Shown here: one piece after another, positions 4,558-51,076 of the stretch
Position numbering within the stretch: position 1 is the stretch's first letter
Layout: every line of letters begins with the position of its first letter
Assembly: GCA_965199495.1 (NCBI GenBank)
Contig: CBDASK010000002.1
Coordinates: 1 to 64,000 of the forward strand
Direction of reading: 5' to 3'
DNA length: 64,000 nt
Source of the DNA: Abditibacterium sp.
GTDB lineage: Bacteria; Armatimonadota; Abditibacteriia; Abditibacteriales; Abditibacteriaceae
Notes under the pieces: generated by a model
Told to the model about the DNA's origin: nothing
What the model saw: the letters and a program-made list of their open reading frames with translations, nothing else
The model's database searches: none
Position numbers and translations under genes: made by a program

Positions 4558-4591
4558 GGCGTTCAGGTAAAATCTACCTGAACGCCTTTTT
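4558..4591 (+). terminator. intrinsic terminator
   Basis: ggcgttcaggta/tacctgaacgcc stem followed by a T-run. Confidence 0.75.
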
Positions 4592-4604
4592 GCGTGACAC
4601 TTCC

Positions 4605-6428
4605 ATGTTAAACCGAAAATACGGATGGCAACCCGACTTGCCCGACCACCGGGATCACCGTGTTGGTGAACAATTCAAGATTGCCGCGCCCGCGATTTTG
4701 CCCGCGTCCGTTGATTTGCGCGCCGGGTTTCCTGACGCATACGACCAAGGCGATCTCGGCTCGTGCCACGACGACCAGACCGAAGTTTTGACCGAGAATG
4801 GCTGGCAGTTCTTCGATAAGGTCAGCTCCGAAGAAAAGCTGGCGACTGTTTGCCCGGTCACAAATAAACTTTTCTTTGAGCGGCCAGCGAGACTTGTGCG
4901 GTTGCCATTTCAGGGCGAAATGATTTGCGGTCGCAGTCAGACAATGGATTTTAAAGTCACCCCTGACCATAAAATGCTTGTTCGTAAATGGGACGAGGGC
5001 TTACGGACATTAAGCAGCGGCTACACATTTGTTGACGCTAAGGACTTAGGGTGGTATTCAGGCTTAATGAATCGCGTTGACTATCAAGGCACCGATTCTT
5101 CCGATACGTTTGTCATGCCCGGAGTAGAACATAAGCATAAACCTCAAAGGGTTGAGCGAGCATTCCCAATGGCAATGTTCCTTCGACTTTTAGGGCTTTA
5201 TTTGGCAGAAGGGACACTTTGCAAGACTGGCCAAAAGGGCAGCGTTTCCAATAGAATCCAAATCGCAGCCGTGAAGGACAGAGAGAAGAGCTTCACTCGC
5301 GCCTTGTTCGCGGAGTTAGGAATAAACGCGCTTGAACTCAAGGATAGATTCACTTTCGAGAACAAGCAAATTTACAAGGCGTTTGAATCATTTGGTCTTA
5401 AAAGTGTAAAAGCGCCGCAGAAATTCGTTCCGGCTTTTGTTTTTCGCCAATCAAGTGATAACATCAAAGAGTTCTTGCTTGGTCATTTCACTGGCGATGG
5501 GAGCGAAACTAAAGGGGGAAGTAGAAGCCATTACACATCTTCCCCCCAACTTGCGGAAGATTTACAAAGGCTAATCTTTCTGTCTGGCCACGAATCTTAC
5601 ATAGCTGTTCGCCCTGCGCGCACTTCGGTTATGAAGGATGGGCGCGTGGTGACGGGGCGCCATTCAGAACATAGAGTTTCGGTTTGTGAGGTAAAGAATC
5701 TTTCTATCGAGAGAGCCTCTTCCATATCACGCGAATATTACGAAGGTGACGTGTTTTGTGCCGAAGTCCCTACTCACCACACCTTAGTCACTCGTCGCAA
5801 TAGGAAAATTCTTATCTCTGGCAACTGTGGCGGCAACGCGGCGGCGGGCGTGCTGCAATATGCGCGTCGCAAACAAGGTTTGCCGGATTGGACGCCTTCG
5901 CGGTTGATGCTCTATTACGATGCGCGCTCACTGGAACATTCCACGCGCGTCGACGCGGGTTGCTCTATCCGGGACGTGATTAAGGGCGCGGCAAAGAACG
6001 GCGCGGCGCCCGAAACGATGTGGCCTTACGAGGTCGCAAAATTCGCCAAGCGCGCACCAAGACCGGCTTACACCGAGGCTAAAAAGCATCCGGCGCTCGA
6101 ATATGCCGCCGTCGAGCAAACCGAAATCGCGCTCAAAACCGTGTTGGCGGCGGGCTACCCAATTATCTTCGGGATTTCGGTTTACGATTCGTTTGAAAGC
6201 GATTTAGTAACCAAGACTGGTAATGTTGCGATGCCGAAGAAAACAGAGCAAGTGCTCGGTGGGCACGCGATTGATCTGGTCGGCTACGACGATGCGAAAA
6301 AGCTCTGGCTCTTTCGCAATTCATGGGGCACCAGTTGGGGAAATGCGGGATGTGGAACCTTACCCTACGCCTATGTCCTTAATCCGGGATTGGCTTCGGA
6401 TTTATGGGTGACTCGCCTGACGGCATAA
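4605..6428 (+). CDS. papain-like C1 cysteine peptidase with an intein
   Basis: YGWQPDLPDHRD, LPASVDLR, DQGDLGS-[intein]-CGGNA, GGHAI, FRNSWGTSWG. Confidence 0.9.
   Translation: MLNRKYGWQPDLPDHRDHRVGEQFKIAAPAILPASVDLRAGFPDAYDQGDLGSCHDDQTEVLTENGWQFFDKVSSEEKLATVCPVTNKLFFERPARLVRLPFQGEMICGRSQTMDFKVTPDHKMLVRKWDEGLRTLSSGYTFVDAKDLGWYSGLMNRVDYQGTDSSDTFVMPGVEHKHKPQRVERAFPMAMFLRLLGLYLAEGTLCKTGQKGSVSNRIQIAAVKDREKSFTRALFAELGINALELKDRFTFENKQIYKAFESFGLKSVKAPQKFVPAFVFRQSSDNIKEFLLGHFTGDGSETKGGSRSHYTSSPQLAEDLQRLIFLSGHESYIAVRPARTSVMKDGRVVTGRHSEHRVSVCEVKNLSIERASSISREYYEGDVFCAEVPTHHTLVTRRNRKILISGNCGGNAAAGVLQYARRKQGLPDWTPSRLMLYYDARSLEHSTRVDAGCSIRDVIKGAAKNGAAPETMWPYEVAKFAKRAPRPAYTEAKKHPALEYAAVEQTEIALKTVLAAGYPIIFGISVYDSFESDLVTKTGNVAMPKKTEQVLGGHAIDLVGYDDAKKLWLFRNSWGTSWGNAGCGTLPYAYVLNPGLASDLWVTRLTA
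4764..5825 (+). mobile_element. intein (354 aa) with LAGLIDADG homing endonuclease
   Basis: Starts CHDDQTEVLT; VTPDHKM; LGLYLAEG and LLGHFTGDG; ends ILISGN followed by Cys. Confidence 0.92.
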
Positions 6429-10740: not shown

Positions 10741-12453
10741 ATGTCTCAAACCGGTGCCTTGACAACTGTTCTGGCGCGCGAAATGGAGAACGCGGAGATG
10801 CGCTGGGTTTTCCTTAAAACCTACGTCGAACCGCTTATCAAAATCGCGTCCAACGATGATACCGCGATGGGCTTTCTGCCCAATCACGAGTTTTTGATTC
10901 GCACGCCCGCGACTGCCATTGCCGTCGTCAAGTGTCGCAAGGTGGCGCACTCTTGGGGCATCTCGGCGAAGTGTTACGCACGCGCGGCGACGGAGCCTCG
11001 TTCAACTTCGATTATCGTTTCCTACGACGAAGACGAAGCGCGCGAAAAGCTCAACTTCCTCGACTGGATTCACCAGGCCGTCACCGACCACAATCCGTCG
11101 CTGTTGCGCGAACTGCGCATGAGCGATGGCAGCGAGATTCGCACCCTTGCCAATGGCGCGCGCATTCGCTTTCTGGCGCGCAAAGAACCGACTGGCCCCG
11201 GCGCTTCGGTGGAGATGGACGAGTTCTCGGTTGAACCACCGGGTCGCGTTTCTGCGGCTCGAATGCTGATTGGCGCTTTGGGTTGCACAACGCACACCGG
11301 CTCGGTTTCCATCGGCGGCACCCAGCGCGGCGAAGAAACGCTCTTCAACCAAATCGTTTCGGGCAATATCGGGAAGCGCATGAGGGACGACCCGGCGATG
11401 GAAGGCAAGTTCAAGGGCCGCGTGGCGCGCACTTGGACGGTCGGCCATTTCCCATGGTGGACTTCGCCCGCGCTTTGCACCAAACCACTCGCGGCGGGCA
11501 ACGGCGCACCTTTGGGCAAGATGTGGCACGGCGGCGCATGGGACATGGAAACCGAGGAACGGGTGGATCGCTTTGCCAACGACAAGCTGTTCGACAAGTT
11601 CATCGAATACACTTCGACGCCGGAACTTGGCCTCGAACTGTTTCAACGCGAGTTCGAGATGCGGATTCTGGACGACAAAGAATCCTATTTCGAGGACGAA
11701 TTGTTGAACTACGCCGAAGACGTGGCAAAACGCCAGCTTGAGCATGGCGGCTACTATTTCAAGAGCATCAACATTGACGGCAACCGCTACGATGATTTCG
11801 GCGACTGCTTGCGTCCGGCTAAAGCCCTGATCGAGCAATTGGTGATGAAGTTTCCGCCCGGTAGCGCGCGCGGCGAGTTCGGATGGGCAATGGACGTGGG
11901 CGCCGACCGCGACCCTGACGAAATTTGGATTGGCCATACCGACCCGCGTGACAAAACGCTGCTGTTGCCGCGTCTCAACATCTCGATGCGCAAGATGCCG
12001 TTCGCGGGCAAAGAAGAAATTTGTCACTTCTTGGTTCAAAAGGTGCGCCCGATGCGCGGCGCCATTGATGCGACCAAAGGCTCGATGGGAATGTCGCTGG
12101 GACAGATGATGGAGAAACGCTACGGCCAGCGAGCGGCGCAGGTGCAATTTACTTCGCTCACCAAAACCGATATGGCGGTGGGCATGAAAAGCCGTATGGA
12201 AGCGGGCAAGTTGGCGCTACCGGACTACAAAACATTGCGTGCACAAATCAAGCGCGTCAAGCGCGAGGAAAAAGGCAACACGGTGAGATTCGATGCTGCG
12301 CGCAACGCGACCGATCACGCCGACAAGTTTTGGAGTTTGGCGATGTTGTGCGAACTGTTTTCGCAACCGGCGAGATTCCAGCCGCGTCCGCCAGTGGCGA
12401 TGCGCCAGAACCGCGCAACTTCTCGCAATGGTTCGTCTGTTGCCCGAAGGTAG
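10741..12453 (+). CDS. terminase large subunit (Mu gp28-like)
   Basis: Walker B VEMDEF, FQREFE, nuclease AMDVG, IDATKGSMG, HADKFWSLA; upstream of the portal. Confidence 0.85.
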   Translation: MSQTGALTTVLAREMENAEMRWVFLKTYVEPLIKIASNDDTAMGFLPNHEFLIRTPATAIAVVKCRKVAHSWGISAKCYARAATEPRSTSIIVSYDEDEAREKLNFLDWIHQAVTDHNPSLLRELRMSDGSEIRTLANGARIRFLARKEPTGPGASVEMDEFSVEPPGRVSAARMLIGALGCTTHTGSVSIGGTQRGEETLFNQIVSGNIGKRMRDDPAMEGKFKGRVARTWTVGHFPWWTSPALCTKPLAAGNGAPLGKMWHGGAWDMETEERVDRFANDKLFDKFIEYTSTPELGLELFQREFEMRILDDKESYFEDELLNYAEDVAKRQLEHGGYYFKSINIDGNRYDDFGDCLRPAKALIEQLVMKFPPGSARGEFGWAMDVGADRDPDEIWIGHTDPRDKTLLLPRLNISMRKMPFAGKEEICHFLVQKVRPMRGAIDATKGSMGMSLGQMMEKRYGQRAAQVQFTSLTKTDMAVGMKSRMEAGKLALPDYKTLRAQIKRVKREEKGNTVRFDAARNATDHADKFWSLAMLCELFSQPARFQPRPPVAMRQNRATSRNGSSVARR

Positions 12454-12702: not shown

Positions 12703-14298
12703 ATGGCTCGACCAACTCTTCCTCGCAATGATGGCGATGGCGAAATCAAAAGCGATTCGCCCGATGTTCCGTCCGCCGATCCCAAGCGTCGCATTCCGCT
12801 CTATCCCGTCACGGTGCAACTGGGGCAGTCGTTTTCGTTCGCCGGGATTTTCGACACTGGCCTGTTTCCCTCGCGCCATCAGAGCGGCTGGGATGAAGGT
12901 TGGGTCGGCTTGGAAACGCGGCTTGCTATGAGTCGCCATCCCAAGGTTTATCAGGGCATCAATAACCTCAAGAACGCCATCGTCGGCGACGGCGGGCGCT
13001 GGATTCCGGCGATCAATCCCTACGGGCCGGACAAAGAGTTTTTTGCCGAAGCCGCCAAATACAGCCGCTTTCTCGACGCCGCGTGGCGCCAGATGAACGG
13101 CTCGTTTTTTGTTGCCACACGGCAGATGCTTTCCTGTATCGAAAACGGCAATAAGATCGCCGCGCCAACGGTGCGCGAGCAACAGACCGGCGTTTACAAA
13201 GGAAAATGGATGCTCGACCGCTTGCAAGTCTGGCCCAACCAATGTTACGCGCTGGGCTGCGACCAATACGGCGAGTTCGACCGCGTGACAACGCGCGGCG
13301 GCATGGGCTTAGGCATTCCCGAAAAGGAACAGCAAACTTACCCACGCGAAAGGTTTCATCATTTGGCGTGGCGCCCGATTAACGGCAATCCCTACGGCAC
13401 CACTATCTATTCGGCGGTTTACGATCCGTTCTTGGAAGATGTTCAGGCGCAATACGAAAACGCAGCTTACATGGCTACATGGGGCAGACCAAGCGTAATC
13501 ATCTTTTCCTCGCCGCCCAAAGACGGAGAAATTGAGGACGTGATGCCGCTCGTTATGGCAAGCGGAACGCCGATCATGGAAGACGACCCCGATAATCCCG
13601 GCGAAATGAAGCAACGCATGGGCTATGCGACCGAACAGAACGCGATCATGTTCACCGAGTTTCAGGCCGGTTCGATTTGGAGTTTGGAAGGCGGCTCAAT
13701 TGTGCAAGTGGCCGAAGCGCGTTCGGGTGGCAACGAACTGTTTCGCGACACCCGCAAAGAAGCGCGCGGCGCGATTATGGACGCCATCTACGGAACGCGT
13801 CACGCGACCGAAGGCGATAAATCCCCAACGGCGGCGGGCGCCGAACTGACCGAAGGCATCGCTGGTTTGAACGTGACCGAAGGTAAAGCAATTTTGGAGC
13901 AGTCGGAAGAGACCGGTATCGGGCGAATGCTATTGGCGCTGAACTTTGGCGACAAGGCGCTTGACCTGATGCCGATGCGCGATTACGGTTCGGGTCAGAG
14001 CGGGCGCCTCGCCAAGATTATGAACGCGACAGTGAGCTTTGCTTCAAACGGTAGCATGACGCGCGCGCAATACTGGGACTTCTGCGCCACCAATGGCCTA
14101 CCACTTTATTGGCCGGGAGACGAGCCTGTGATCTTTTCGTTGCGGCGAATGAGCTTGGAACTGAGTTCAAAATTGGGCATGAAGGAAGCCAAGGAAATGG
14201 GCGGAGAGAATCCGGGTGGCGGCGACAAAGGTTCCAATGACCCCAACTCCGGCTCCGACGATGGCAAGCCCAACCCGAATCAGGACGGTGCGAATTGA
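12703..14298 (+). CDS. portal protein (DUF935-like)
   Basis: 531 aa after TerL; GNPYG and WGRP motifs. Confidence 0.75.
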   Translation: MARPTLPRNDGDGEIKSDSPDVPSADPKRRIPLYPVTVQLGQSFSFAGIFDTGLFPSRHQSGWDEGWVGLETRLAMSRHPKVYQGINNLKNAIVGDGGRWIPAINPYGPDKEFFAEAAKYSRFLDAAWRQMNGSFFVATRQMLSCIENGNKIAAPTVREQQTGVYKGKWMLDRLQVWPNQCYALGCDQYGEFDRVTTRGGMGLGIPEKEQQTYPRERFHHLAWRPINGNPYGTTIYSAVYDPFLEDVQAQYENAAYMATWGRPSVIIFSSPPKDGEIEDVMPLVMASGTPIMEDDPDNPGEMKQRMGYATEQNAIMFTEFQAGSIWSLEGGSIVQVAEARSGGNELFRDTRKEARGAIMDAIYGTRHATEGDKSPTAAGAELTEGIAGLNVTEGKAILEQSEETGIGRMLLALNFGDKALDLMPMRDYGSGQSGRLAKIMNATVSFASNGSMTRAQYWDFCATNGLPLYWPGDEPVIFSLRRMSLELSSKLGMKEAKEMGGENPGGGDKGSNDPNSGSDDGKPNPNQDGAN

Positions 14299-36252: not shown

Positions 36253-36662
36253 AAGAGAGATTCAGACGTAAACAGCAATTGTTAGATCAATTGAGAATCG
36301 CCAGGAAAGAAGTGGGACGAATCCAAGAATTGCTCATAAGCGAAGGATTTGAAAAAATTGACTGGGATAAATTTGACTGGCGAGAAGATGTTCTTAAAAT
36401 CGCTGACACAAAAGGATTTAGCTACGATTGCATCAGGAAGCAAAAGCATGAGTTTATGAAGCCGATTTATTCCGAAATGGATTTCAGGCTTCGCAACATG
36501 GATTTGCGCGACATTTGGCACGCCGATTACCAGTGGGTAACATTCCATCGCACCAAAGGAAGACATGGCGCTGCATTATCAGTAGAAGATGCAAAATACA
36601 AGGAATTGCTTGAGAATGAGAAGTCTAAGGCCGCAAAGGTTTTGGCTAATGGCAACCTATAA
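36249..36662 (+). CDS. hypothetical protein (AT-richer)
   Basis: Coupled on both sides. Confidence 0.6.
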   Translation: MKERFRRKQQLLDQLRIARKEVGRIQELLISEGFEKIDWDKFDWREDVLKIADTKGFSYDCIRKQKHEFMKPIYSEMDFRLRNMDLRDIWHADYQWVTFHRTKGRHGAALSVEDAKYKELLENEKSKAAKVLANGNL

Positions 36663-37984
36663 TGGCACATCCAATTAACAGCGTCACGCTTGACGTTACA
36701 CCGAAGAATACTTGGGTTTACACCGGGATATTTCTCGAACCAAGCGACGGCTTGCGCGTGACTTCGACTGGCGATGCTTCGGCTCTACTGCTCGATTTGC
36801 AGCCGACGAATACGCCACCCGCCGACTACGAGGGCGCACTCATTGGCGCGGCGTATGTCGTCGCCAACTATGGCGCGGGCGGTTACGTCTGGCTTCGCTC
36901 CAATGCCAATGGTAACGTCTCTTCGACAGTTGAACGTCTGGCGACCGTTGAGCGCGGCTTGCCTTCGCCGATTCGTTTTGTGCCACCGGGCATCCTGGCA
37001 GCGAAAGGGGCGAGCGAATCGGCGTTTGCATGGATGATCGCCATTAAACCCAAGTGCGGCGACTGGGAAGGCTACACGTCATGGGACGTGTCGCTCAAGG
37101 CGCCGCAGTATCAGGACGAACTGGGCAATGTCACTCCGGCGCTCACCTACCAGCCAAACGGTGCAGAACTCTCGCGCATTCCGCAGTCGCTCAAGTTGGG
37201 CGCGCAATCTTCGGATGCCAAAGTATTATCGCCGCGCTACTCGGACATTCTGAATATGGGAGCTACGCCGCAAGTGTTTTTGCCGCGCGATAAAATGGAG
37301 TCCGGCTACTATGTGGATGGTTATTGGGAACTGTTCGAGGTGATGCCTGATACCGACATGAACGAACGTTTGTGCTGGGTGTGCGGCGAAATCGGGCAAG
37401 TCTCCTATGACGACACTCAGGCGACGGTGGAACTGGCGACTTACGAAGACATTGTGAATCGCACCATCGGCGACCAGTTGCACATCTCGTGTCAGGTCGG
37501 CGCACGACGGGGTGAGAAGTTTGGGACGGGACGGTGCCGCAACGAAGTTTTGAGCGATGGGCCACTGCGCGCCGACTGGACATTTCGGGCGACTGTGCTG
37601 GCGGGAAGTGCCGTTGATGCCGTGCGCGTTCGCATTGGCAATCAGTCCATTACAGGCAAAGCCATTGACCCTGAATTTATCTCGCGTTTGAATAACGGAG
37701 ATTTGGAGTTCTTGGCGCCAGAAGAAGGTGGCGGCGTGATGGCTCACCGCGAGTTCCCTTTGCGCGGCGGCAACTTGATTTCGTCGGCGGGCACAACTCA
37801 AACGCTCGAAATCTACCCGAAGTTGGCGCTGCCATTTATTCCGGTTGCTGGCGATCTGGCAAACTTGGTCGTCGGTTGTCGTCGGTTGAAAACGGACTGC
37901 ATTTGGTTTAACAACCTCTATAATTTTCGCGGCGGCGGAGACTTACCCGGCAATGATGATTTGAACAGGAGAACACGAACATGA
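36662..37984 (+). CDS. tail hub protein (DUF2163/BR0599-like)
   Basis: C-terminal GCRRLKTDCIWFNNLYNFRG motif. Confidence 0.8.
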   Translation: MAHPINSVTLDVTPKNTWVYTGIFLEPSDGLRVTSTGDASALLLDLQPTNTPPADYEGALIGAAYVVANYGAGGYVWLRSNANGNVSSTVERLATVERGLPSPIRFVPPGILAAKGASESAFAWMIAIKPKCGDWEGYTSWDVSLKAPQYQDELGNVTPALTYQPNGAELSRIPQSLKLGAQSSDAKVLSPRYSDILNMGATPQVFLPRDKMESGYYVDGYWELFEVMPDTDMNERLCWVCGEIGQVSYDDTQATVELATYEDIVNRTIGDQLHISCQVGARRGEKFGTGRCRNEVLSDGPLRADWTFRATVLAGSAVDAVRVRIGNQSITGKAIDPEFISRLNNGDLEFLAPEEGGGVMAHREFPLRGGNLISSAGTTQTLEIYPKLALPFIPVAGDLANLVVGCRRLKTDCIWFNNLYNFRGGGDLPGNDDLNRRTRT

Positions 37985-39170
37985 CCGAACGAAACACAGC
38001 CGAACTCGAAGATAGGATGATGGACATTCTGAGAGAGCATAACGGCTATGAGGATTGGGTAGAATGGCCTGTTATCGCAATGATAGTTGGTTCGCCGAAT
38101 ATCAACAATGTTCATGCGGTGGCAAAACTCGTGGAATCAAAAAGGATTTGGTCGGCACGAATGGTGCGAAAGATAGACGGCGAGGCAGAATCTACTCACA
38201 CGCAGATATTTAAGATTAGAATATGAAAACACCTCTACTCACCGAGAAGCAAGCATTTCAAATGCTCTGCAATCTACCGCAACCCTGCGTTTACGATGCA
38301 ATCGAAAACATTGAACCTCAACCAAGCGTAGATTTTGCCCGTTTTGCTCTACTCAAACTCGAAGAAGCAGGGTTTGTTCAATGGCATCGCTGGCACCCTT
38401 GGGAGATTTCCTTGGCCGAAAAAGGACAGTCTCTTCTGGCGCTTCTCCGCCAAGAATATGGAGTTGAATCTACACCATGAATCCACGCAACGGAATTTCA
38501 CCAGTTATCGCGGCGGCAGTCGCCGGAGAACTATTGAGCCTCGATTATATGATGGCTCCGCCCGCCTCGTCCTTTACGCCACAACCGGCTGTTGGCGCTC
38601 CTGCGACCTTTACGCCCGAAATGCGAGAAATGGTCGTCGAAGAAATGGAGTTTCTCAAAAAGACGCGATCTGATTTGAACGCAAAGGGACGTAAGAAGTT
38701 GGCGCGTGCGCGCGCTTTGGAGTTGATGCAAAAATGAGTTACACCGTCCGCGTTCGAGACAACGATGCCAACAAAGAAATGACCATGACGGATTGGCAGT
38801 CGCCTTTCATCCCGGCCAAAGGCGATTTTATAGAAGTAAGCGATTCCTATTCAGAGAAGGGTTTTATCGGCTTCGTCCAAGGAATTAGTTATTCGTTGAC
38901 AACAGGATTTACACCCGGCGATGGCCGATACGACGACAACGACTGGTCGGAAATCGTAGTCACTATTTACATAGGGCCAAAGCAATGAGCGACTTTTTCA
39001 ACGATTACTTCTTCATCGTCCTCGGCAAGATATTTCTGGCGCTCATCGTCGCGATGGTTATTTTCGACCTTTATCATCGCTATGTATCGCCCAAAGCGCG
39101 TGAGGACAATAGGTTTTGGGCGGCGCAGAAACGGCTGGCGGAAGAAATAAGGCGAGAGAAATCCAAATGA
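37981..39170 (+). CDS. five small coupled hypothetical genes (37981-38226, 38223-38480, 38477-38737, 38734-38988, 38985-39170)
   Basis: Unbroken chain of ATGA overlaps. Confidence 0.65.
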
Positions 39171-39682
39171 AACGCCATCCTGAAAAACTCACCTTCTCTC
39201 GTCGATTACTGCGGGCACAGGATTTCGTAGACGCCTTGCTTAAATACGAAGGCATTTTGTATTCGCCTCATGCGAATTGGACTCTTCTCAAGGACGGTGC
39301 AATTGTGAATGGCCGCGCCAACTGCTTCGGCGTGCTGCTTATGGCGGCAAATGACTGTGAGTTGTGGGACGGCTCTCCCAACTTACCGCCCGCCGAATAC
39401 GAAGGCCAAACTTCGGCCAAAACACTGGCGGAGATTTTGGACTATAATTTCAACGAAGTGGCATATTCCGAAATGCGCGAAGGCGATATTCTATCGTTTC
39501 GCTATCGGGATGTGGATTGGGCGCGGCGCGAACCTCATCACATCGGCGCTTACGTCGGCAACGGCCAGTTCTTTCACGCTTCACAGGACGCCGGAAAGTG
39601 CATTGTTTCCCCGCTCGACGTTCTGATGCAAACACGCATTGACAAAGTTTTACGATTGCCAAATTTAATCTACGCGCCATGA
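39167..39682 (+). CDS. NlpC/P60 tail-associated peptidase
   Basis: NCFG...EGDIL...HHIGAY...FFHAS. Confidence 0.88.
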   Translation: MKRHPEKLTFSRRLLRAQDFVDALLKYEGILYSPHANWTLLKDGAIVNGRANCFGVLLMAANDCELWDGSPNLPPAEYEGQTSAKTLAEILDYNFNEVAYSEMREGDILSFRYRDVDWARREPHHIGAYVGNGQFFHASQDAGKCIVSPLDVLMQTRIDKVLRLPNLIYAP

Positions 39683-40146
39683 ACTTAATTTACGGGGATA
39701 TTTGGAGCGAAATCGGCAAGGCGGACATGATCTGTTTTACTGCCAATTCCACGCTCGACAAGCACGACGCTCTGATAATGGGCGCGGGGAGTGCGCTCGA
39801 ATGTAAGACGAGATGGCCCCATCTTGCACGCGAATTTGGATCGCTGATTTCAGACGACATCTACGGCAAGCGTTTTGGTTTCCTGGATGCTCGCGCAGAC
39901 GCTTCGACCATCATAGGCGCTTTTCAAACGAAATATCATTGGCGCGAAAAAGGCGATTTAGAGTTGATTGAACATTCGACCCATGTTCTCATCAATCACC
40001 TTGAAGCAGTTGTGATGATGGGCTACCAATGTCGCGTAGCAATGGTTTTCCCCGGAACGGGTTATGGCGGCTTAAATCGCGCAGACGTGCTGCCGATCAT
40101 TGCCAAGTTGCCGAGCAACGTTTGGGTCTACGAGAAACAAATTTGA
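39679..40146 (+). CDS. macro-domain (ADP-ribose processing) protein
   Basis: GDIW, TANS, MGAGSA, FQTKYHWR, PGTGYGGL. Confidence 0.85.
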   Translation: MNLIYGDIWSEIGKADMICFTANSTLDKHDALIMGAGSALECKTRWPHLAREFGSLISDDIYGKRFGFLDARADASTIIGAFQTKYHWREKGDLELIEHSTHVLINHLEAVVMMGYQCRVAMVFPGTGYGGLNRADVLPIIAKLPSNVWVYEKQI

Positions 40147-40156
40147 TTTACACACC

Positions 40157-40558
40157 ATGAATAAGGAAATCGAACAACTGTGCGCTCGACTTGCTGCGGC
40201 GTGGAACATTGATATTGACGATATTGGCTTAGAACTCAATAACGTGGGCGAAAGTTATCTCTGCAACATGGCGAACGAGCGATTGGGTTACGAACACATT
40301 CGCGGCGACATATCAGTTAGAGGCGAAGATTTCTGGGCAATCGTTTGTCACCACCGCCCTATTAGTTATTGGTTACTTTCAAGGCTGAGGCTGCCCGAAA
40401 ATAAAGATTTATCTTCGATAATTTATCGGTTCTATTTTTGGATGGGTGCCGACGTTCAATTTCTCGAAGACGCCGGAATAACAGTTCGCGCTCACGATAA
40501 ATTGGAATGGGCGTTACAGATGAGAGAGAAAGGCTTTACACTAAACGCCAATGGCTGA
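40157..40558 (+). CDS. hypothetical protein, paralog of 49742-50164
   Basis: Shared N-terminus and VRAHDKLEWA C-terminus. Confidence 0.7.
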   Translation: MNKEIEQLCARLAAAWNIDIDDIGLELNNVGESYLCNMANERLGYEHIRGDISVRGEDFWAIVCHHRPISYWLLSRLRLPENKDLSSIIYRFYFWMGADVQFLEDAGITVRAHDKLEWALQMREKGFTLNANG

Positions 40559-40763
40559 TTCAATTTCGACTGCCAAACCTAACCTACGCACCATGACTGA
40601 ATACCTTTCCACAATAAAGACAGAAGAACTCTTGGAAGAAATCAAAGACTCCATCACCGAAGCGTCGAAAGGCATGACGGATTCGGGCATTGTGAACCTC
40701 ATCGAGATCGTGATTACTTCTCTGCAAGACGAGAAAGAAGATTTTGAGCGAAACTTAGACTAA
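40551..40763 (+). CDS. hypothetical acidic protein
   Basis: Coupled ORF. Confidence 0.55.
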   Translation: MADSISTAKPNLRTMTEYLSTIKTEELLEEIKDSITEASKGMTDSGIVNLIEIVITSLQDEKEDFERNLD

Positions 40764-40825
40764 TGGCTGATTCCTTACGCAACGTTGGTTCCCTCGCGGC
40801 TGGCGCGGTCGGCTTTTATGTTTAG
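40763..40825 (+). pseudogene. orphaned 5' fragment of the tail-tip gene (MADSLRNVGSLAAGAVGF-YV-stop)
   Basis: Encodes the same first 18 aa as 41550-41603. Confidence 0.85.
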
Positions 40826-40834
40826 AATAAAGAT

Positions 40835-40863
40835 TTGCATTAGCAACACTTAGGAGCTAAACT
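40835..40863 (+). promoter_or_regulatory. promoter of the HNH gene, probably leaderless
   Basis: TTGCAT-17bp-TAAACT, with ATG 6 nt downstream. Confidence 0.55.
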
Positions 40864-40869
40864 GATGCT

Positions 40870-41544
40870 ATGGCAAATCCAAAATTTCCAAAAATGCCCG
40901 ACGATATGACCGTAGATGTTTGTCGCCGTTACCTTGCTGGCGAAAGCGCGAAGTCCATCGCCAAAACTATTCCTTACACTGACGTAACGGTTGTTCGAGT
41001 TCTTCGCCGCAACGGAATTGAAATTCGTCCTCACGGTGACACGAAATCTGCATCGAAGTTCTGTCCTGACTGCAAAAAGGGCGTGCCCATTTCTGAGTTT
41101 TACGGCGTCGAGCGTGGGCACGTTGACAATCGCTGCAAAACTTGCCGAAAAGCCTACGCAGCCAAGTGGAAAAAAGACAATCGAGAAAAGAGCTTGGGCT
41201 TGGCGCGAGATTACGCTCGTCGCAATAAAGATCGACAACTTGCAAATTCGCGCAAGAGGAACGCTGAAAATCCAGCTAAATTTCAAGCATCGAAGGCCAA
41301 AAAGAAAGCTCGTGATCTTGGAATTGAGGGGACTTTTACATGGCAGGAATTTGTTGCTCTTTGTGATAAATTCGGAAATGTTTGCCTCAGTTGTGGAGTT
41401 TCGGCCAAACTAACCGTTGACCATGTTATTCCGTTGAGTCAAAACGGCTGCACGAATGACATTGGTAACATCCAGCCTTTATGTCTTTCCTGCAATTCCA
41501 GCAAGGGAACCAAGACGATTGACTATCGGCCAAATGAAGATTAA
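40870..41544 (+). CDS. free-standing HNH endonuclease with HTH and Zn-finger
   Basis: CLSC...TVDHVIPLS...NDIGNIQPLCLSCNSSKG. Confidence 0.92.
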   Translation: MANPKFPKMPDDMTVDVCRRYLAGESAKSIAKTIPYTDVTVVRVLRRNGIEIRPHGDTKSASKFCPDCKKGVPISEFYGVERGHVDNRCKTCRKAYAAKWKKDNREKSLGLARDYARRNKDRQLANSRKRNAENPAKFQASKAKKKARDLGIEGTFTWQEFVALCDKFGNVCLSCGVSAKLTVDHVIPLSQNGCTNDIGNIQPLCLSCNSSKGTKTIDYRPNED

Positions 41545-41549
41545 TTGAT

Positions 41550-44156
41550 ATGGCAGATTCACTGAGAAACGTGGGGTCGCTGGCTGCGGGGGCGGTCGGT
41601 TTTGCCGTTTCTGGGCCGTTGGGCTTCGCTGTGGCCGAAGTTGCGTTCAACTTCTTGGTGCCGCCGAAGCCGCCAAAAACAGCCAAAGGTACGCGGACAC
41701 TGCAACAGGAAAAGAATACGGCGGTTGGCACGGCGATTTTTGAGGTTTATGGCAAATGGGAGCGCGAGGGCGGCGACCTGATTCGCTGCGCCAAAGACCG
41801 CGACGGCGTGCGTTCGGGCATTCTGGTGATTACCAAAGAAGAGAAGCAGGGCGGTTCGGGCGGTTCGGGATTAAGCACCGGCGCGCAAAAGGTCAGCAAA
41901 GACTACCAGTATTTACAGGCCTCATTCGCTCTGTGCGCTGGCCCTGCGCGCGTGGATCGCGTGATCGAAGTCAATGGCACCGATGGAGAGAAGGTCGTCT
42001 ATTTGCGCGACGACACTTACAATAATCGTGGCGCGTGGCGCGACAACACCGATTACGAAGTCGGCGATACCGTCACCAAAAATAACAAGCGGTATCTGTG
42101 CAAAGAAGCGCACCATTCCAGTTACGAGACAGACCCTGGTGACGACAGCGACGATAGTGACCCGACGAAAAACTGGCGCACTTACTGGACGCTAATTGGA
42201 GATAAGAACTCCCTGCTTGATTTTGTGCCGATTCGCAGCGCCCTCTCCGGCGAAGAAATCGGCCTGATGTCGGAGACCCTACGCCTTTATTACGGCACCG
42301 AAGAACAACCGACCGACAGCGCCGAAATGAGTTGGTATGACGACGGCGTTTCTGCCGACCGAGGCATTTGCAAGGCCGTGTTCAATAAATATGGGCCGTT
42401 GGAATCAGGCACGACGTTTAAGTTTCTGCTATCGGCGGGAACTGGCAATCGGCGCGAAATTATTCGTTCGCGGATGCAACGCGCTGGCGTTCCTGCATCT
42501 CGGATTGATTTGCGCTCGATTCCCGCCGATGCCGCCGACTATGGCTGGGCCGTCGAAGGGCGCGAAGCCGCGCGAACACTGTGCGAGAACGTCGCGGCAA
42601 TGGCCTTTCACGACTTGCATTTTCTGGCGACCGCGAGCGGAATGTGTTTTACCGATGTTTCGCAGTCTAATCCCACAGTTTTCGTGGTGCCGGATGCGCT
42701 GCTGGGCGCTTATTCCAATTCGGGCGGCGACGGCGCGCCGATCTCGACACTCAACGGCACCATCCAAAGCGGCGAAACCAAGCCGCGCGAACTGAGCGCC
42801 GATTTTGTCAATCTCAATCGCAACTACAAGGACGATAGCGTGGTGGCGCAGTGGCCTCAGGGTCAGGGCGAGCCGCAAAGCGTATCCTTCAAACTGGTTT
42901 CGGACGTGGAGCAGATGGGAGATTGGGTCGAAGTCGCCATGCGCGCGATTCAGGCCGTCAACGGAACTGGTGACGTGTCCCTGATGCCCGCTTTGTCACA
43001 GGTCGCCTGTGGCTGCGCGCTCGATTTGGGCGTTGAAACACAGGATAATCCCTTGGCTCGCAAACTGTTTCGCGTGGTGTCTCAGGCGATTGCTCCCGAT
43101 GGCGCTCTGGCTTGCACCCTGGCGCCCTACGACCCCTCGGTTTACGAGCCGGTGCCCCTTCATCCGGTGACGGTAGAGCCGCCGCCTCAGGTTTTTCTGT
43201 TTGGACTGCCGCGCGTTTTGATTTTGGATACGGCCAACGTCTCGGACGAAACCATTGATGATCCATACGCGCTGATGGTGGGCTACTGCAATGCCGATGA
43301 TAACTGGGGCGGCGCGACCGTCTCTTCGTCGTCGGGCGCCTTCGCTGACGTGGAACTCCCCTTTCGCGGAAAAATCGGCAAAACAGTGACGGCCTACAAT
43401 TATTCTCCCTTCGATACGGCGTATTTCGATTATCAAACCACGCTGCGAGTGAATCTTGATTACAGCGAACTGGTTTCTGCAAGCGAGGACGACGTGAGAA
43501 ATGGCGCCAACGTGCTTTATATCGGCGGCGCCTTTGTCGCGTTCGTGACGGCCACGCCTCTGGGCGGCGGTGTTTACGATCTCAAAGGGCTTTTGCCGGG
43601 ACTGCTGGGCACCGATTTTGTAGGAAATTTACCAGTCGGTTCACGAGTGGTCAAAATGACCGATCATACAGGCGCTTTGGAACCGAGCGTTACGCCAGTG
43701 AAGTGGACGCGCCGCTTCCTCAATCGTCAGGGCAACTACCGCGTTTACAGCGCGCGCGACACCACAATTTCTTCGGACGATATGACTTGCACGCTGACCG
43801 GCGAGAATCTGCGCGCGCTGTCGGTTTCGCCCTGGATTACGCGCGGCAGCGATGGAAACGGCGGGTATGAACTCAAGTTCTTTGGTCGCTCGCGTTATCA
43901 TGGCGTTGGAGAAGATTACTGGCAAGCGGGTTTTCCCGTCCGCCACGCCGACCCTCTTTCGTGGACGGTGCGCTTGAAGAGCGGGTCGGCAATTCTCGAT
44001 GAACGCGTCGTGAGTTCGCTCGACGCGGAAGTTTCGGTGAACTACACTCAAAGCGAACTGACCGCGATTTATGGCTCCGTGCCCGCCAAACTCAACGGAG
44101 AAGTTTTTCAAAACGGCACCTATGGAAGCGGGCGCGCGCGCCCCTTTAACCTCTAA
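41550..44156 (+). CDS. tail tip / host-specificity protein
   Basis: 868 aa after NlpC; ALCAGP, LYYGTEEQ, CBM-like WRDNTDYEVGDTV. Confidence 0.8.
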   Translation: MADSLRNVGSLAAGAVGFAVSGPLGFAVAEVAFNFLVPPKPPKTAKGTRTLQQEKNTAVGTAIFEVYGKWEREGGDLIRCAKDRDGVRSGILVITKEEKQGGSGGSGLSTGAQKVSKDYQYLQASFALCAGPARVDRVIEVNGTDGEKVVYLRDDTYNNRGAWRDNTDYEVGDTVTKNNKRYLCKEAHHSSYETDPGDDSDDSDPTKNWRTYWTLIGDKNSLLDFVPIRSALSGEEIGLMSETLRLYYGTEEQPTDSAEMSWYDDGVSADRGICKAVFNKYGPLESGTTFKFLLSAGTGNRREIIRSRMQRAGVPASRIDLRSIPADAADYGWAVEGREAARTLCENVAAMAFHDLHFLATASGMCFTDVSQSNPTVFVVPDALLGAYSNSGGDGAPISTLNGTIQSGETKPRELSADFVNLNRNYKDDSVVAQWPQGQGEPQSVSFKLVSDVEQMGDWVEVAMRAIQAVNGTGDVSLMPALSQVACGCALDLGVETQDNPLARKLFRVVSQAIAPDGALACTLAPYDPSVYEPVPLHPVTVEPPPQVFLFGLPRVLILDTANVSDETIDDPYALMVGYCNADDNWGGATVSSSSGAFADVELPFRGKIGKTVTAYNYSPFDTAYFDYQTTLRVNLDYSELVSASEDDVRNGANVLYIGGAFVAFVTATPLGGGVYDLKGLLPGLLGTDFVGNLPVGSRVVKMTDHTGALEPSVTPVKWTRRFLNRQGNYRVYSARDTTISSDDMTCTLTGENLRALSVSPWITRGSDGNGGYELKFFGRSRYHGVGEDYWQAGFPVRHADPLSWTVRLKSGSAILDERVVSSLDAEVSVNYTQSELTAIYGSVPAKLNGEVFQNGTYGSGRARPFNL

Positions 44157-44167
44157 GGATTCACACA

Positions 44168-44884
44168 ATGGCGACTTCTGACCCGCAACCTTACGCACCC
44201 GAACAAATTGGGCAACTGTCGGCTTCTGGCGATCCTCGCACCGAAGCCAATTATCTGTTCCGCATTATCAAGGCACTTCTGACAAACGGAATCGGCACCA
44301 GCAATGTTACGACTATTGTTGTGCCAAGCAATCGCCAGAGTTGGACGGACACTGGCATAAACCTTAACATCGCCGATGCCCTCACAATCGAAGCGACTGG
44401 CACTGTTTCGGAATCGTCCAGCATCCCACCTTACCTGATTCAGTCCAATGGTTTTTTGAGATTCCATGCCATTGTTGTATCCAACGGAGTTACGCCAAGC
44501 AACACTGTTATCGGCAATAGCTATGCGCTCAGTTCCGCGTTATCACGCCAGGTTGGGCGAGTCTGGGTCAGAGTTCACGACTACATCGCAACATCGGCTC
44601 AGTTTGGAGATTACTCGGACAATCAAGGCGAAGTCACCGCAACTCTAAACTATTACTCCAACGCCGCAAAAGCACCCGCTCCAACAGTTGTCCAGGTTTT
44701 ACAGTCCAACGTCGCGGGACTCAAAGAGGCACTGGCCCTTAAACTCAACGCCAATCAACCGATATTTTTCCCCAATGTGACAACTGAACCGGATACGCCA
44801 GTTGGCGGAGTCGTCTTTTATGCTCAGGACGGCGTTGCAAAAGTCAAGAACGCGGCAGGAACCGTGTTCACCATCGGAGGTTAA
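44168..44884 (+). CDS. tail fibre-like protein
   Basis: Gene order; WTDTGI...YSDNQG lectin-like segment. Confidence 0.55.
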   Translation: MATSDPQPYAPEQIGQLSASGDPRTEANYLFRIIKALLTNGIGTSNVTTIVVPSNRQSWTDTGINLNIADALTIEATGTVSESSSIPPYLIQSNGFLRFHAIVVSNGVTPSNTVIGNSYALSSALSRQVGRVWVRVHDYIATSAQFGDYSDNQGEVTATLNYYSNAAKAPAPTVVQVLQSNVAGLKEALALKLNANQPIFFPNVTTEPDTPVGGVVFYAQDGVAKVKNAAGTVFTIGG

Positions 44885-49730: not shown

Positions 49731-49741
49731 CGAGAATAACG

Positions 49742-50164
49742 ATGAACCGAAACGAAATCGAGCAGATGCGCGCGCGTATTGCAGCGGCGTGGGGTGTTGA
49801 TGTGAGCGAAGTTGAATATGAAGCGTTAATTTACGCAGCGCAAACCGATTCTTTTACTATCGAATTGGGCGCCAATAAAATTCAGTGGCGCCCAGAAGTC
49901 GCGTGGCTTTTACTAAAAACCACTGAGGATTATATGCCCGCGCAAATTGATATGAACGCGCCAGTTGCGCACAGGTTCAGTGTTCCGATTACGACGCTGC
50001 GGCTGCATTTCAATGCAAAAGAATTTTTCGCAATCGCGCACTTTCTCTATTGCATGGGTTACGACATCCAATTCTTGATAGACGCGAGTGTGACAGTCAG
50101 GGCGCACGATAAACTCGAATGGGCGCAACAGATGAAAGAGAAGGGATTTGCGCTGGCAAAATGA
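49742..50164 (+). CDS. hypothetical protein, paralog of 40157-40558
   Basis: Shared termini. Confidence 0.7.
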   Translation: MNRNEIEQMRARIAAAWGVDVSEVEYEALIYAAQTDSFTIELGANKIQWRPEVAWLLLKTTEDYMPAQIDMNAPVAHRFSVPITTLRLHFNAKEFFAIAHFLYCMGYDIQFLIDASVTVRAHDKLEWAQQMKEKGFALAK

Positions 50165-50177
50165 GGTGAAATGACGC

Positions 50178-50214
50178 AAAAAGGCCGTGACTTTTAAAAG
50201 TCACGGCCTTTTTT
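50178..50214. terminator. bidirectional terminator between the two genome arms
   Basis: Perfect palindrome aaaaaggccgtgacttttaaaagtcacggccttttt. Confidence 0.9.
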
Positions 50215-51076
50215 ATTGATCGAGAACTGAAATTAGTCGAGAGAACCATTCCCTCGCTTCTGGCGTTGGTGCCAGAAGCGAGATATGGTTCTCAACAAGC
50301 TCAAGGCAAAGGCTGTGGAGATTCTCCGGTGATTGGTTGAGATTGCTTTGCGTTGAACTTGTCTTTAGATCGCTTTTCGATAAATCGCCTATATTCGGCG
50401 TGCTGATCGAGAGTGAACCCTGCGGCGAGCATATTGGCCCGCTTTCTCTTGGCTCCCGATTCTCGGATTCGTTGGATTCGAGTGGCTTCGTCGTCTCCTG
50501 AAAAGAGGGGCTTTCGGGGTTTTGAGACGGGTTCTGCCCCGTTCCCGTCTCGCTTTCTTTTTTTCCTATCTCGCCCGTTTTCATCGTGGATTTAGTGCCG
50601 TGTTTCGTGGTGTAGGTGCGCGTCTCACTTATAACGTTTGAAGTGAGATTTTTGTCTTTGCGGATACCCGAAACAAAAGGTTGCGAAACGCCACACTGTT
50701 TAGCAATTGCGTTATCGCTCCACTGGCTCCATTCGGCATCTTCGAGCAAAACCATCACGGCGCGGCGCTTGTCAGCGATGGTGCGGTTGACCTGTGAAAT
50801 AGAGTTGGCGCCGACAGAGTAGAGAATAGCAGCGCGTTTATCGCCTTGGCGTATATCGGCGTCAATTTCAGTCAAGCCAGCTTTCTTTGCAGCGTTCCAG
50901 CGATGAAATCCATCGGCCATCCAGTAATCCGTTCCGTCGTAGAAAACTACGACGGGCGGGAACTGTGCGCCTTCTTTCATATCATCAGCGTAAGCGTCTA
51001 TGGCGGTCGCGTCCATGAAAGCGCGTGACTGAGTGCCGCCGTTGCACTTAATCTGAGTGAGAAGCAACTTCTCCAT
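50213..51076 (-). CDS. ParB/Srx-like protein with HTH
   Basis: FPPVVV...DGFHRW; WSDNAIAKQCGVSQPFV. Confidence 0.8.
   Translation of the reverse strand: MEKLLLTQIKCNGGTQSRAFMDATAIDAYADDMKEGAQFPPVVVFYDGTDYWMADGFHRWNAAKKAGLTEIDADIRQGDKRAAILYSVGANSISQVNRTIADKRRAVMVLLEDAEWSQWSDNAIAKQCGVSQPFVSGIRKDKNLTSNVISETRTYTTKHGTKSTMKTGEIGKKESETGTGQNPSQNPESPSFQETTKPLESNESENREPRESGPICSPQGSLSISTPNIGDLSKSDLKTSSTQSNLNQSPENLHSLCLELVENHISLLAPTPEAREWFSRLISVLDQ

Follow-up and report, generated by a model that had tools for sequence, protein, structure and literature searches.

An HNH endonuclease gene between two synonymously divergent copies of a tail-gene start in a siphophage-like genome

Introduction

Homing endonuclease genes are, to our knowledge, thought to survive within essential genes only when an intron or an intein surrounds them, and otherwise to lie between genes. 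In fungal mitochondria, the C-terminal ends of atp6, cox2, cob and rps3 occur in duplicate in association with endonuclease genes, according to the available parts of two reports (PMC4019555, PMC6279837), one of which names atp6 of Allomyces macrogynus as such a gene-end case (PMC4019555). In T4-like phages, the MobA / gene 60 cassette is an HNH element inside an essential open reading frame (ORF) that brings a divergent homologous replacement of its target, and self-cleavage is avoided by changes to the target, as far as the accessible text of that study goes (bioRxiv 10.1101/2022.08.31.505936). The free-standing Seg and Mob endonucleases of T-even phages home without introns and with co-conversion of flanking markers, and T4 introns with one-sided homology undergo illegitimate double-strand-break repair with microhomology junctions and enter new sites (PMC2988022, in the sections at hand). 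Here we describe a locus in a phage genome, within a stretch of 64,000 nucleotides (nt) that we call the window (positions 1 to 64,000 of the forward strand of contig CBDASK010000002.1, Abditibacterium sp. assembly GCA_965199495.1), where an HNH gene lies between two differently spelled copies of the start of a tail gene. We consider it rather probable that a free-standing HNH homing endonuclease came with a diverged donor allele of this gene start, that repair was homologous on one side only and that the resident start was left behind as a stub.

The locus resembles the fungal mitochondrial hybrids, as the available parts of those reports portray them, in that an endonuclease gene sits at a gene end, flanked by one working and one stranded partial copy, and in that the incoming copy is a somewhat altered homologue. 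An analogy with these fungal elements had been drawn in a preliminary description of the locus, made from its letters alone, and it is apt to the extent that the accessible text allows (PMC4019555, PMC6279837). However, the fungal cases concern the 3' (C-terminal) end, involve LAGLIDADG or GIY-YIG enzymes and often fuse the endonuclease in frame to the host gene, whereas the window has the 5' end, an HNH gene with its own start, stop codons between all three ORFs and a phage host. With MobA the locus shares, in a comparison by layout, an HNH element within an essential ORF, an accompanying divergent homologue of the target segment and the existence of close insert-free relatives. However, in the portion of that account available, 55-75 nt of the MobA target are deleted, the gene is split into two working ORFs with added tails and a 50-nt translational bypass is needed for immunity, whereas in the window no deletion is in view, the gene remains undivided and has a complete new start, and its old start survives as a stub. 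Like the Seg and Mob genes, the HNH gene is free-standing beside an essential gene, but the natural T-even cases, in the sections of the source at hand, lie between genes and involve no gene-start duplication, and the one-sided events were laboratory constructs. Of the marks of a free-standing homing gene, the window holds an intact HNH domain, presence or absence at the locus and a divergent flanking tract. A natural phage case with a retained, peptide-identical gene-start stub was found neither in open PubMed Central nor in bioRxiv, subscription journals lying outside this search, and the layout, known from fungal mitochondria, has apparently not been described for phage gene starts. It would offer homing endonucleases a third way in phages, in which the element invades the start of a coding sequence and supplies a substitute for it.

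Results and discussion

One peptide encoded twice

The peptide MADSLRNVGSLAAGAVGF is encoded at both 40763-40816 and 41550-41603, by copies that differ in 12 of 18 codons through 14 substitutions (3 transitions and 11 transversions, with 40 of 54 nt identical) and in none of their residues. Direct reading and a repeat search, which detects the two copies as a direct repeat of 61 nt with 72% identity, both bear out this core observation of the preliminary description. The upstream copy is a stub of what would be the resident tail-gene allele (40763-40825, + strand), consisting of codons 1-18 followed by Y, V and a stop (TAG at 40823-40825). As had been noticed, it is coupled through TAATG to a preceding 70-amino-acid (aa) ORF (40551-40763), the stop of which overlaps the start codon of the stub. 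The complete tail gene (41550-44156, + strand) begins with the downstream copy, so that the working start does lie downstream of the insert and only a stub is left on the other side, as the preliminary description had it. In a tblastn search with tail-protein N-termini, the stub is the only significant match within 39000-41549, and no further tail-gene remnants were found in that interval. An assembly artefact can be ruled out as the source of this arrangement, since a Logan contig of 52,353 nt, built from the source run by an independent assembly, spans 39700-42448 with 0 differences and shows the identical layout.

The substitutions between the copies have a distinctive character. Only 44 of the 153 possible single substitutions are synonymous (0.288), which for 14 of them gives 0.288^14 = 2.6e-8, and in a simulation the peptide survived none of 200,000 random draws of 14 substitutions; a chance origin of the all-synonymous pattern is excluded. 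The Nei-Gojobori method counts 13 synonymous differences at 15 synonymous sites, a saturated level (pS = 0.87), and the one non-synonymous count that it returns is due only to path averaging of CGC/AGA. Identical codons amount to 5 of 17, where independent draws from the codon usage of the phage give 5.9 +/- 1.9, and by this measure the copies are as unlike as independent back-translations. For comparison, the tail gene of the window and its homologue at a distant metagenomic locus, L003, which share 51% aligned amino-acid identity, have 56 of 174 codons identical. Divergence in place of an initially identical repeat can be ruled out, as a dead copy would gain non-synonymous changes, yet 14 of 14 substitutions are synonymous. 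Because the differences are all synonymous and saturated, the copies, judged by their sequences, must have diverged in separate phage lineages, each as the start of a working gene, and must have come together only recently.

Which of the two is the newcomer is suggested by base composition at third codon positions, albeit on small numbers. In the working tract the share of G at third positions is 0.47 for codons 2-18 and 0.40 for codons 19-48, compared with 0.26-0.31 over the remainder of the gene; C at third positions makes up 0.47 in the stub and 0.35-0.36 in that remainder. These biases, small as the underlying numbers are, point to a stub that looks resident and a working tract that looks incoming. 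A contrast in codon usage between the copies had also been proposed; its direction holds, the summed log relative codon frequency being -21.6 for the upstream and -25.0 for the downstream copy, but its size is modest.

The HNH gene

The HNH gene (40870-41544, + strand, 224 aa) lies between the copies, as first described, and is recognised by Pfam as HNH (E 1.3e-10) and HNH_5 (E 4.2e-7), its product also matching the HNH chains 4ogc, 5h0m and 4h9d of the PDB by sequence. Its domain appears intact, in that the predicted catalytic His/Asn and a Cys4 zinc site are present, and C172, C175, D184, H185, N200, C205, C208 and N209 are invariant across 10 aligned HNH homologues. An AlphaFold model (mean predicted local distance difference test, pLDDT, 73) predicts an N-terminal three-helix module (residues 11-47, pLDDT 82-88) and a zinc-ribbon-like CxxC...CxxC hairpin, then helical hairpins, and lastly the C-terminal HNH/Cys4 domain; matches to HTH_38 (E 0.002) and HTH_58 (E 0.008) are weak and below the Pfam cut-offs. 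With a G+C content at third codon positions (GC3) of 0.44, compared with 0.59 for the contig, the gene is foreign by composition. It gives the only HNH match among the 62 ORFs scanned in the window, and the 4.8-Mb assembly holds no other copy of the insert, the HNH gene or the 70-aa ORF, two weak HNH-domain matches being found on the chromosome. A packaging factor of the terminase-associated HNH kind was considered and rejected, the gene being ~26 kb from the terminase and portal genes and absent from the relative described below.

Between stub and HNH gene there is a spacer (40826-40869, + strand). The preliminary description had mentioned a promoter-like site of the HNH gene; a consensus scan returned 0 such sites in 40000-42000, and what the sequence itself shows is an AGGAG (40853-40857) that precedes the HNH start codon by 12 nt. 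Terminator-like hairpins are not enriched (4, compared with 2.7 +/- 1.9 in shuffles). A group I intron or an intein was rejected, as a search of 40000-42200 against Rfam gave 0 matches with E values of 1 or less and the HNH ORF is stop-bounded and out of frame with the tail gene. The proposal of a non-splicing element has thus stood up, and the predicted features support an insert that is not an intron and consists of a free-standing HNH gene with its own start and stop.

A protein search with the HNH product returned 716 matches, the best other than itself being P0012 (54% identity) and P0013 (50%). Together with the window protein, these two define a subfamily with the N-terminal helix module that was not found in genome or viral collections. 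Among the 120 of the 716 matches listed, there was no near-identical homologue on the 61,032-nt contig that encodes P0001, the closest homologue of the tail protein, and tblastn against isolated phages gave 79 records, none of them covering 80% of the query. The layout itself, with an HNH gene between peptide-identical repeats, was found at none of 80 IMG/VR loci that carry related HNH genes. Matches of 7-10 residues occur at 7 of these loci, at none of them within 300 nt on both sides (the nearest, L082, has them at 673 and 336 nt), and are taken as chance or paralogy. Since 0 of 80 related loci share the layout, the HNH family does not generally behave in this way.

Some further observations concern these relatives. 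At locus L013, the peptide INPDNLGLDQ is found on both sides of the HNH gene (at ~2591 and ~5509), with 7 of 30 nt different and at distances of 365 and 2,074 nt from the gene, and is probably a repeated domain and not a gene-end duplication. P0012, the closest HNH orthologue, is called with N-terminal and C-terminal extensions of 23 and 14 residues, and P0008, a homologue of the tail protein, is called without its first ~40-50 residues; each is recorded on a contig of 62,306 nt, putatively one and the same by its equal length. Such calls would fit an HNH insertion in or near the tail-gene start of that phage, possibly splitting the gene.

A relative without the HNH gene

A lichen metagenome (run X1), compared with the window at a threshold of 80% likeness, contains a related phage without the insert. 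Its contig of 18,993 nt (depth 83) aligns to 40492-40561, continues with 77 unaligned letters and then aligns from 41638 onward, while a contig of 231 nt (depth 3.4) aligns to the same 40492-40561, has 58 unaligned letters and resumes at 41619. Over 41638-42700, the X1 phage and the window differ by 88 mismatches in 1,063 nt (~92% identity). The sizes of the gaps keep the reading register of the tail gene (11 + 77 = 88 = 41638 - 41550 and 11 + 58 = 69 = 41619 - 41550), which places the X1 tail-gene ATG at the position of 40551. There it overlaps the stop of a 152-aa gene (40100-40558 in the window, + strand, no family), at the point that in the window is occupied by the start codon of the 70-aa ORF, and the last ~60 nt of the 152-aa gene together with the overlap with the next ATG (ATGGCTGA) form the ancestral context of the tail-gene start. 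X1 therefore lacks the HNH gene, the stub and the 70-aa ORF, a net difference of 999 nt, and over 40562-41618 nothing was found in X1 at a likeness of at least 80% except an 18-nt piece at 40917-40934.

This relative answers only in part to the empty allele that the preliminary description had predicted. An HNH-less relative does exist, but the predicted join of 40763-40816 to 41604 was not seen in it, and the 70-aa ORF is missing as well. The first 70-90 nt of its tail gene are too unlike both window copies to align at 80%, and its 5' tract is known as protein P0001, on the assumption that the X1 phage is the phage of P0001 or a similar one. Since X1 carries a third, different 5' tract, the foreign tract of the window is not assignable from it.

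The relative also bears on the question of whether the upstream 20-codon ORF is more than a remnant. It could be a retained small gene or leader peptide under its own selection, for example a separate hydrophobic N-terminal peptide or one that sets HNH expression, and indeed its frame, start and coupling are intact and none of its residues differs from the working copy; P0008, called without its first ~40-50 residues, might further suggest that an N-terminal peptide can be encoded apart. However, a recent join explains the intact state without invoking any function, the ORF ends after two foreign codons and the HNH-less relative has no such extra ORF, which together make a leader peptide most improbable in our eyes.

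Comparison with the relative also delimits the tract that differs in ancestry. The tail proteins of the window and of P0001 differ at 48 of 868 residues, and 13 of these 48 differences fall within residues 1-48 and 0 within residues 49-153 (Fisher p = 7e-7), while X1 DNA is alignable at 80% only from 41619 or 41638 onward. These residue differences and alignment starts indicate that the working 5' tract of the tail gene (41550-41693, + strand, codons 1-48), of an ancestry that appears unlike that of the rest of the gene, extends past 41603, with a putative recombination boundary between about codons 24 and 48. The end of the element had been placed at 41603, which falls short, as the divergent tract runs on to about codons 30-48 (41640-41693). 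The tract is sharp and stands directly beside the HNH gene.

How the layout may have arisen

From this anatomy we infer cleavage, a cut site, a direction of transfer and immunity along the following lines. The nuclease would have cut an HNH-less tail gene near codons 18-20, and the right end would have recombined with homologous tail-gene sequence downstream of the divergent tract, with synthesis from this end copying the gene start of the donor and its HNH gene. The left end would then have met no homology upstream of the donor's HNH gene and would have been joined illegitimately, leaving the resident start stranded. In the product, the incoming allele (roughly the first 30-48 codons) would supply the working start from 41550, and the first 18 codons of the resident allele would persist as a dead stub on the upstream side (40763-40825), its coupling to the preceding ORF intact. 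Alternatively, the layout may have formed once in this manner and now spread by ordinary two-sided homing, with the stub renewed from each new host, a renewal that would explain why the stub is undecayed. The linked allele probably escapes its own nuclease, and homologous excision of the insert is unlikely because no identical run between the copies exceeds 8 nt.

Several observations count against this reconstruction. The empty allele that corresponds most directly to it, with the stub sequence running into the whole gene, was not found in X1, and the sole HNH-less relative has a third 5' tract and is without the 70-aa ORF. A 12-nt repeat surrounds the 70-aa ORF, which indicates that duplications arise here with no nuclease gene inside, and the layout recurs at none of the 80 IMG/VR loci carrying related HNH genes, only the window itself, included as a control, being positive. 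The stub could mark the limit of resection and not the cut site. Moreover, 18 of 18 identical residues at saturated synonymous sites exceed what the family would lead one to expect, as the first 18 residues of nine homologues match at best at 14 of 18 positions, and those of the 94%-identical P0001 at 11 of 18. Because the family varies in residues 1-18, plain divergence can account for the two copies only with a lineage-specific constraint, with selection on the element or with luck. Luck is made likelier by the way in which the case was found, as it was chosen from a very large scan for its strikingness.

Selection on the element belongs to a strong form of the reading in the preliminary description, which took the synonymous differences for a recoding. 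On this account an adapted knock-in cassette, made of the HNH gene and a recoded start, homes repeatedly, and selection has driven the maximal synonymous difference so that the element is immune and is not lost by recombination. The identity of the peptide at all 18 residues in a family that varies (best of nine homologues 14/18) speaks for it, as do a synonymous difference at the level of independent back-translation (5/17 versus 5.9 expected), a longest identical run between the copies of only 8 nt and a working tract with a third-position bias of its own; P0012 (54% identity) and the start-lacking P0008, both on a putatively shared 62,306-nt contig, give a hint of the same target in a distant phage. 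However, the difference is no greater than random saturation and carries no signal of directional recoding, the ordinary divergence of two working alleles looks identical, the subfamily is absent from the viral and genome collections searched and the related HNH loci do not share the layout. We therefore regard such a cassette as unlikely. Slightly less unlikely, though doubtful, is the more general idea that the HNH gene and the respelled start are a natural unit that cuts, knocks in and repairs the 5' end of an essential gene, killing the resident start and bringing a nuclease-proof and recombination-proof copy, with translation of the essential gene placed right behind the nuclease ORF (5-nt gap) so that its loss or silencing is hard. 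If a cassette of this kind were at work, homing endonucleases would be colonising phage gene ends without introns or inteins. The synonymous sites bear no sign of recoding as an adaptation, being merely saturated as they are between distant homologues, and the apparent recoding is best read as the ordinary divergence of two alleles that were probably both working until they were joined.

With a donor allele and one-sided repair as the preferred explanation, the undecayed stub becomes a dated snapshot that would mark the cut or else the end of resection and separate donor from resident sequence. The first 90-150 nt of a tail gene related to host range are an exchange hot spot, with three alleles among phages that are ~92% identical elsewhere, and the HNH protein would be a candidate site-specific nuclease with a guessable target. 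For annotation, a rule can be drawn from the locus, in that a short ORF repeating the first residues of the next gene marks such an insertion, and the layout provides a search pattern for further cases.

Three nested starts and the 70-aa ORF

The repeat search also revealed a shorter duplication. A 12-nt start motif, AATGGCTGATTC, has its first copy at 40550-40561 (+ strand) and recurs at 40762-40773 (12/12) and at 41549-41560 (10/12), such that three successive ORFs open with ATGGC(T/A)GATTC and each reads M-A-D-S. The first of them is the acidic 70-aa ORF (MADSISTAK..., 40551-40763, + strand), which stands at the ancestral tail-gene start and is absent from X1. In a search of 5.8 billion clustered proteins it found only itself, a HMMER search over 1.84 billion proteins returned itself and one weak match, to a 514-aa protein with 7 matched stretches, and its match to phrog_3323 is weak (E 2.3e-4). 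It may be a very young gene or a mere open spacer, and it has the look of a second insertion, nested at this gene start and accompanied by a duplication of just 12 nt. We read the tail-gene start as a site where new genes repeatedly enter and the start is restored.

The nested starts also lend themselves to an explanation by modular recombination, with the nuclease gene as a passenger. Imprecise joins at a conserved linker start would have left the 12-nt and the 54-61-nt duplications as scars, and the HNH protein would have made no cut here. In keeping with this, the three successive ORFs share ATGGC(T/A)GATTC and the 70-aa ORF is an insertion in the same style with no nuclease gene; the X1 contig is unlike the window upstream of 40492, as in a mosaic region, and the region from the NlpC/P60 gene to the tail gene differs in the distant L003. 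We nevertheless give this explanation little credence. Endonuclease genes sit at exchange boundaries because they cause the exchange, as the accessible part of one study has it (PMC10448857), the HNH gene is intact and compositionally foreign, the break in homology is exactly at its flanks, and imprecise joins that spare an essential gene are far likelier to be recovered after a targeted break has been repaired from a homologous donor.

The tail gene and its phage

The tail gene encodes an 868-aa host-specificity or baseplate protein resembling g15 of gene transfer agents (GTAs), with matches to Pfam Rcc01698_C (E 5.9e-15) and CBM_5_12 (E 3.8e-6) and to phrog_4271, 'tail protein' (E 3.4e-37), and its ORF is complete, unsplit and colinear with homologues of 868-878 aa. 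It begins 5 nt past the HNH stop codon, with a weak GAAG ahead of the start, and because of this short gap and weak motif, translation of the tail gene may lean on that of the HNH ORF. A protein search gave 10 homologues of the tail protein, of which P0001 (61,032-nt contig) is 94% identical, P0002 65% and the others 36-44%. Isolated phages gave no blastn match to 40000-44200, and tblastn of the tail protein against them gave only matches of 26-40% to GTA-like tail proteins, none of them close. No relative was found with the tail protein as query in IMG/VR and species-representative genomes, and a scan of metagenomes yielded just one locus, the distant L003 (best segment 46% identical), where a small ORF is TAATG-coupled to the tail gene and there is no HNH gene. 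This small ORF of 56 aa is coupled much as the 70-aa ORF of the window is coupled to the stub, and L003 also has, upstream of the NlpC/P60 gene, a partial ORF with a helix-turn-helix-like sequence (L003 1-206 and 1172-1345).

The window comes from a 64,557-nt contig, the second of a three-contig assembly that also includes a 4.72-Mb chromosome, and is a siphophage-like genome (64.6-kb contig), in which a profile search of the ORFs found a Mu-type portal, an S49 protease and a 2,400-aa tape measure. A terminase-like ORF lies at 10741-12453 and the portal gene at 12703-14298, and the GTA-like tail tip includes a BR0599 hub (36662-37984) and an NlpC/P60 peptidase (39116-39682). The 152-aa gene upstream of the locus has a paralogue in the same phage, at about 49739-50164, with 37% identity over residues 19-148 and likewise of no known family. 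An ORF of 612 aa (4590-6428, + strand) matches Peptidase_C1 (papain-like, E 5.9e-11) and LAGLIDADG_3 (E 1.6e-6), and over residues 58-152 it matches PHROGs annotated as thymidylate synthase and ribonucleotide reductase, a pattern expected of families that bear inteins. The ORF probably represents an intein that carries a second homing endonuclease of this phage. An ORF at 50213-51076 on the - strand encodes a ParB N-terminal domain (E 3.3e-6). Since the phage assembles separately from the chromosome, as a 64.6-kb contig, it might persist as a plasmid-like prophage, or it might be a co-sequenced lytic phage.

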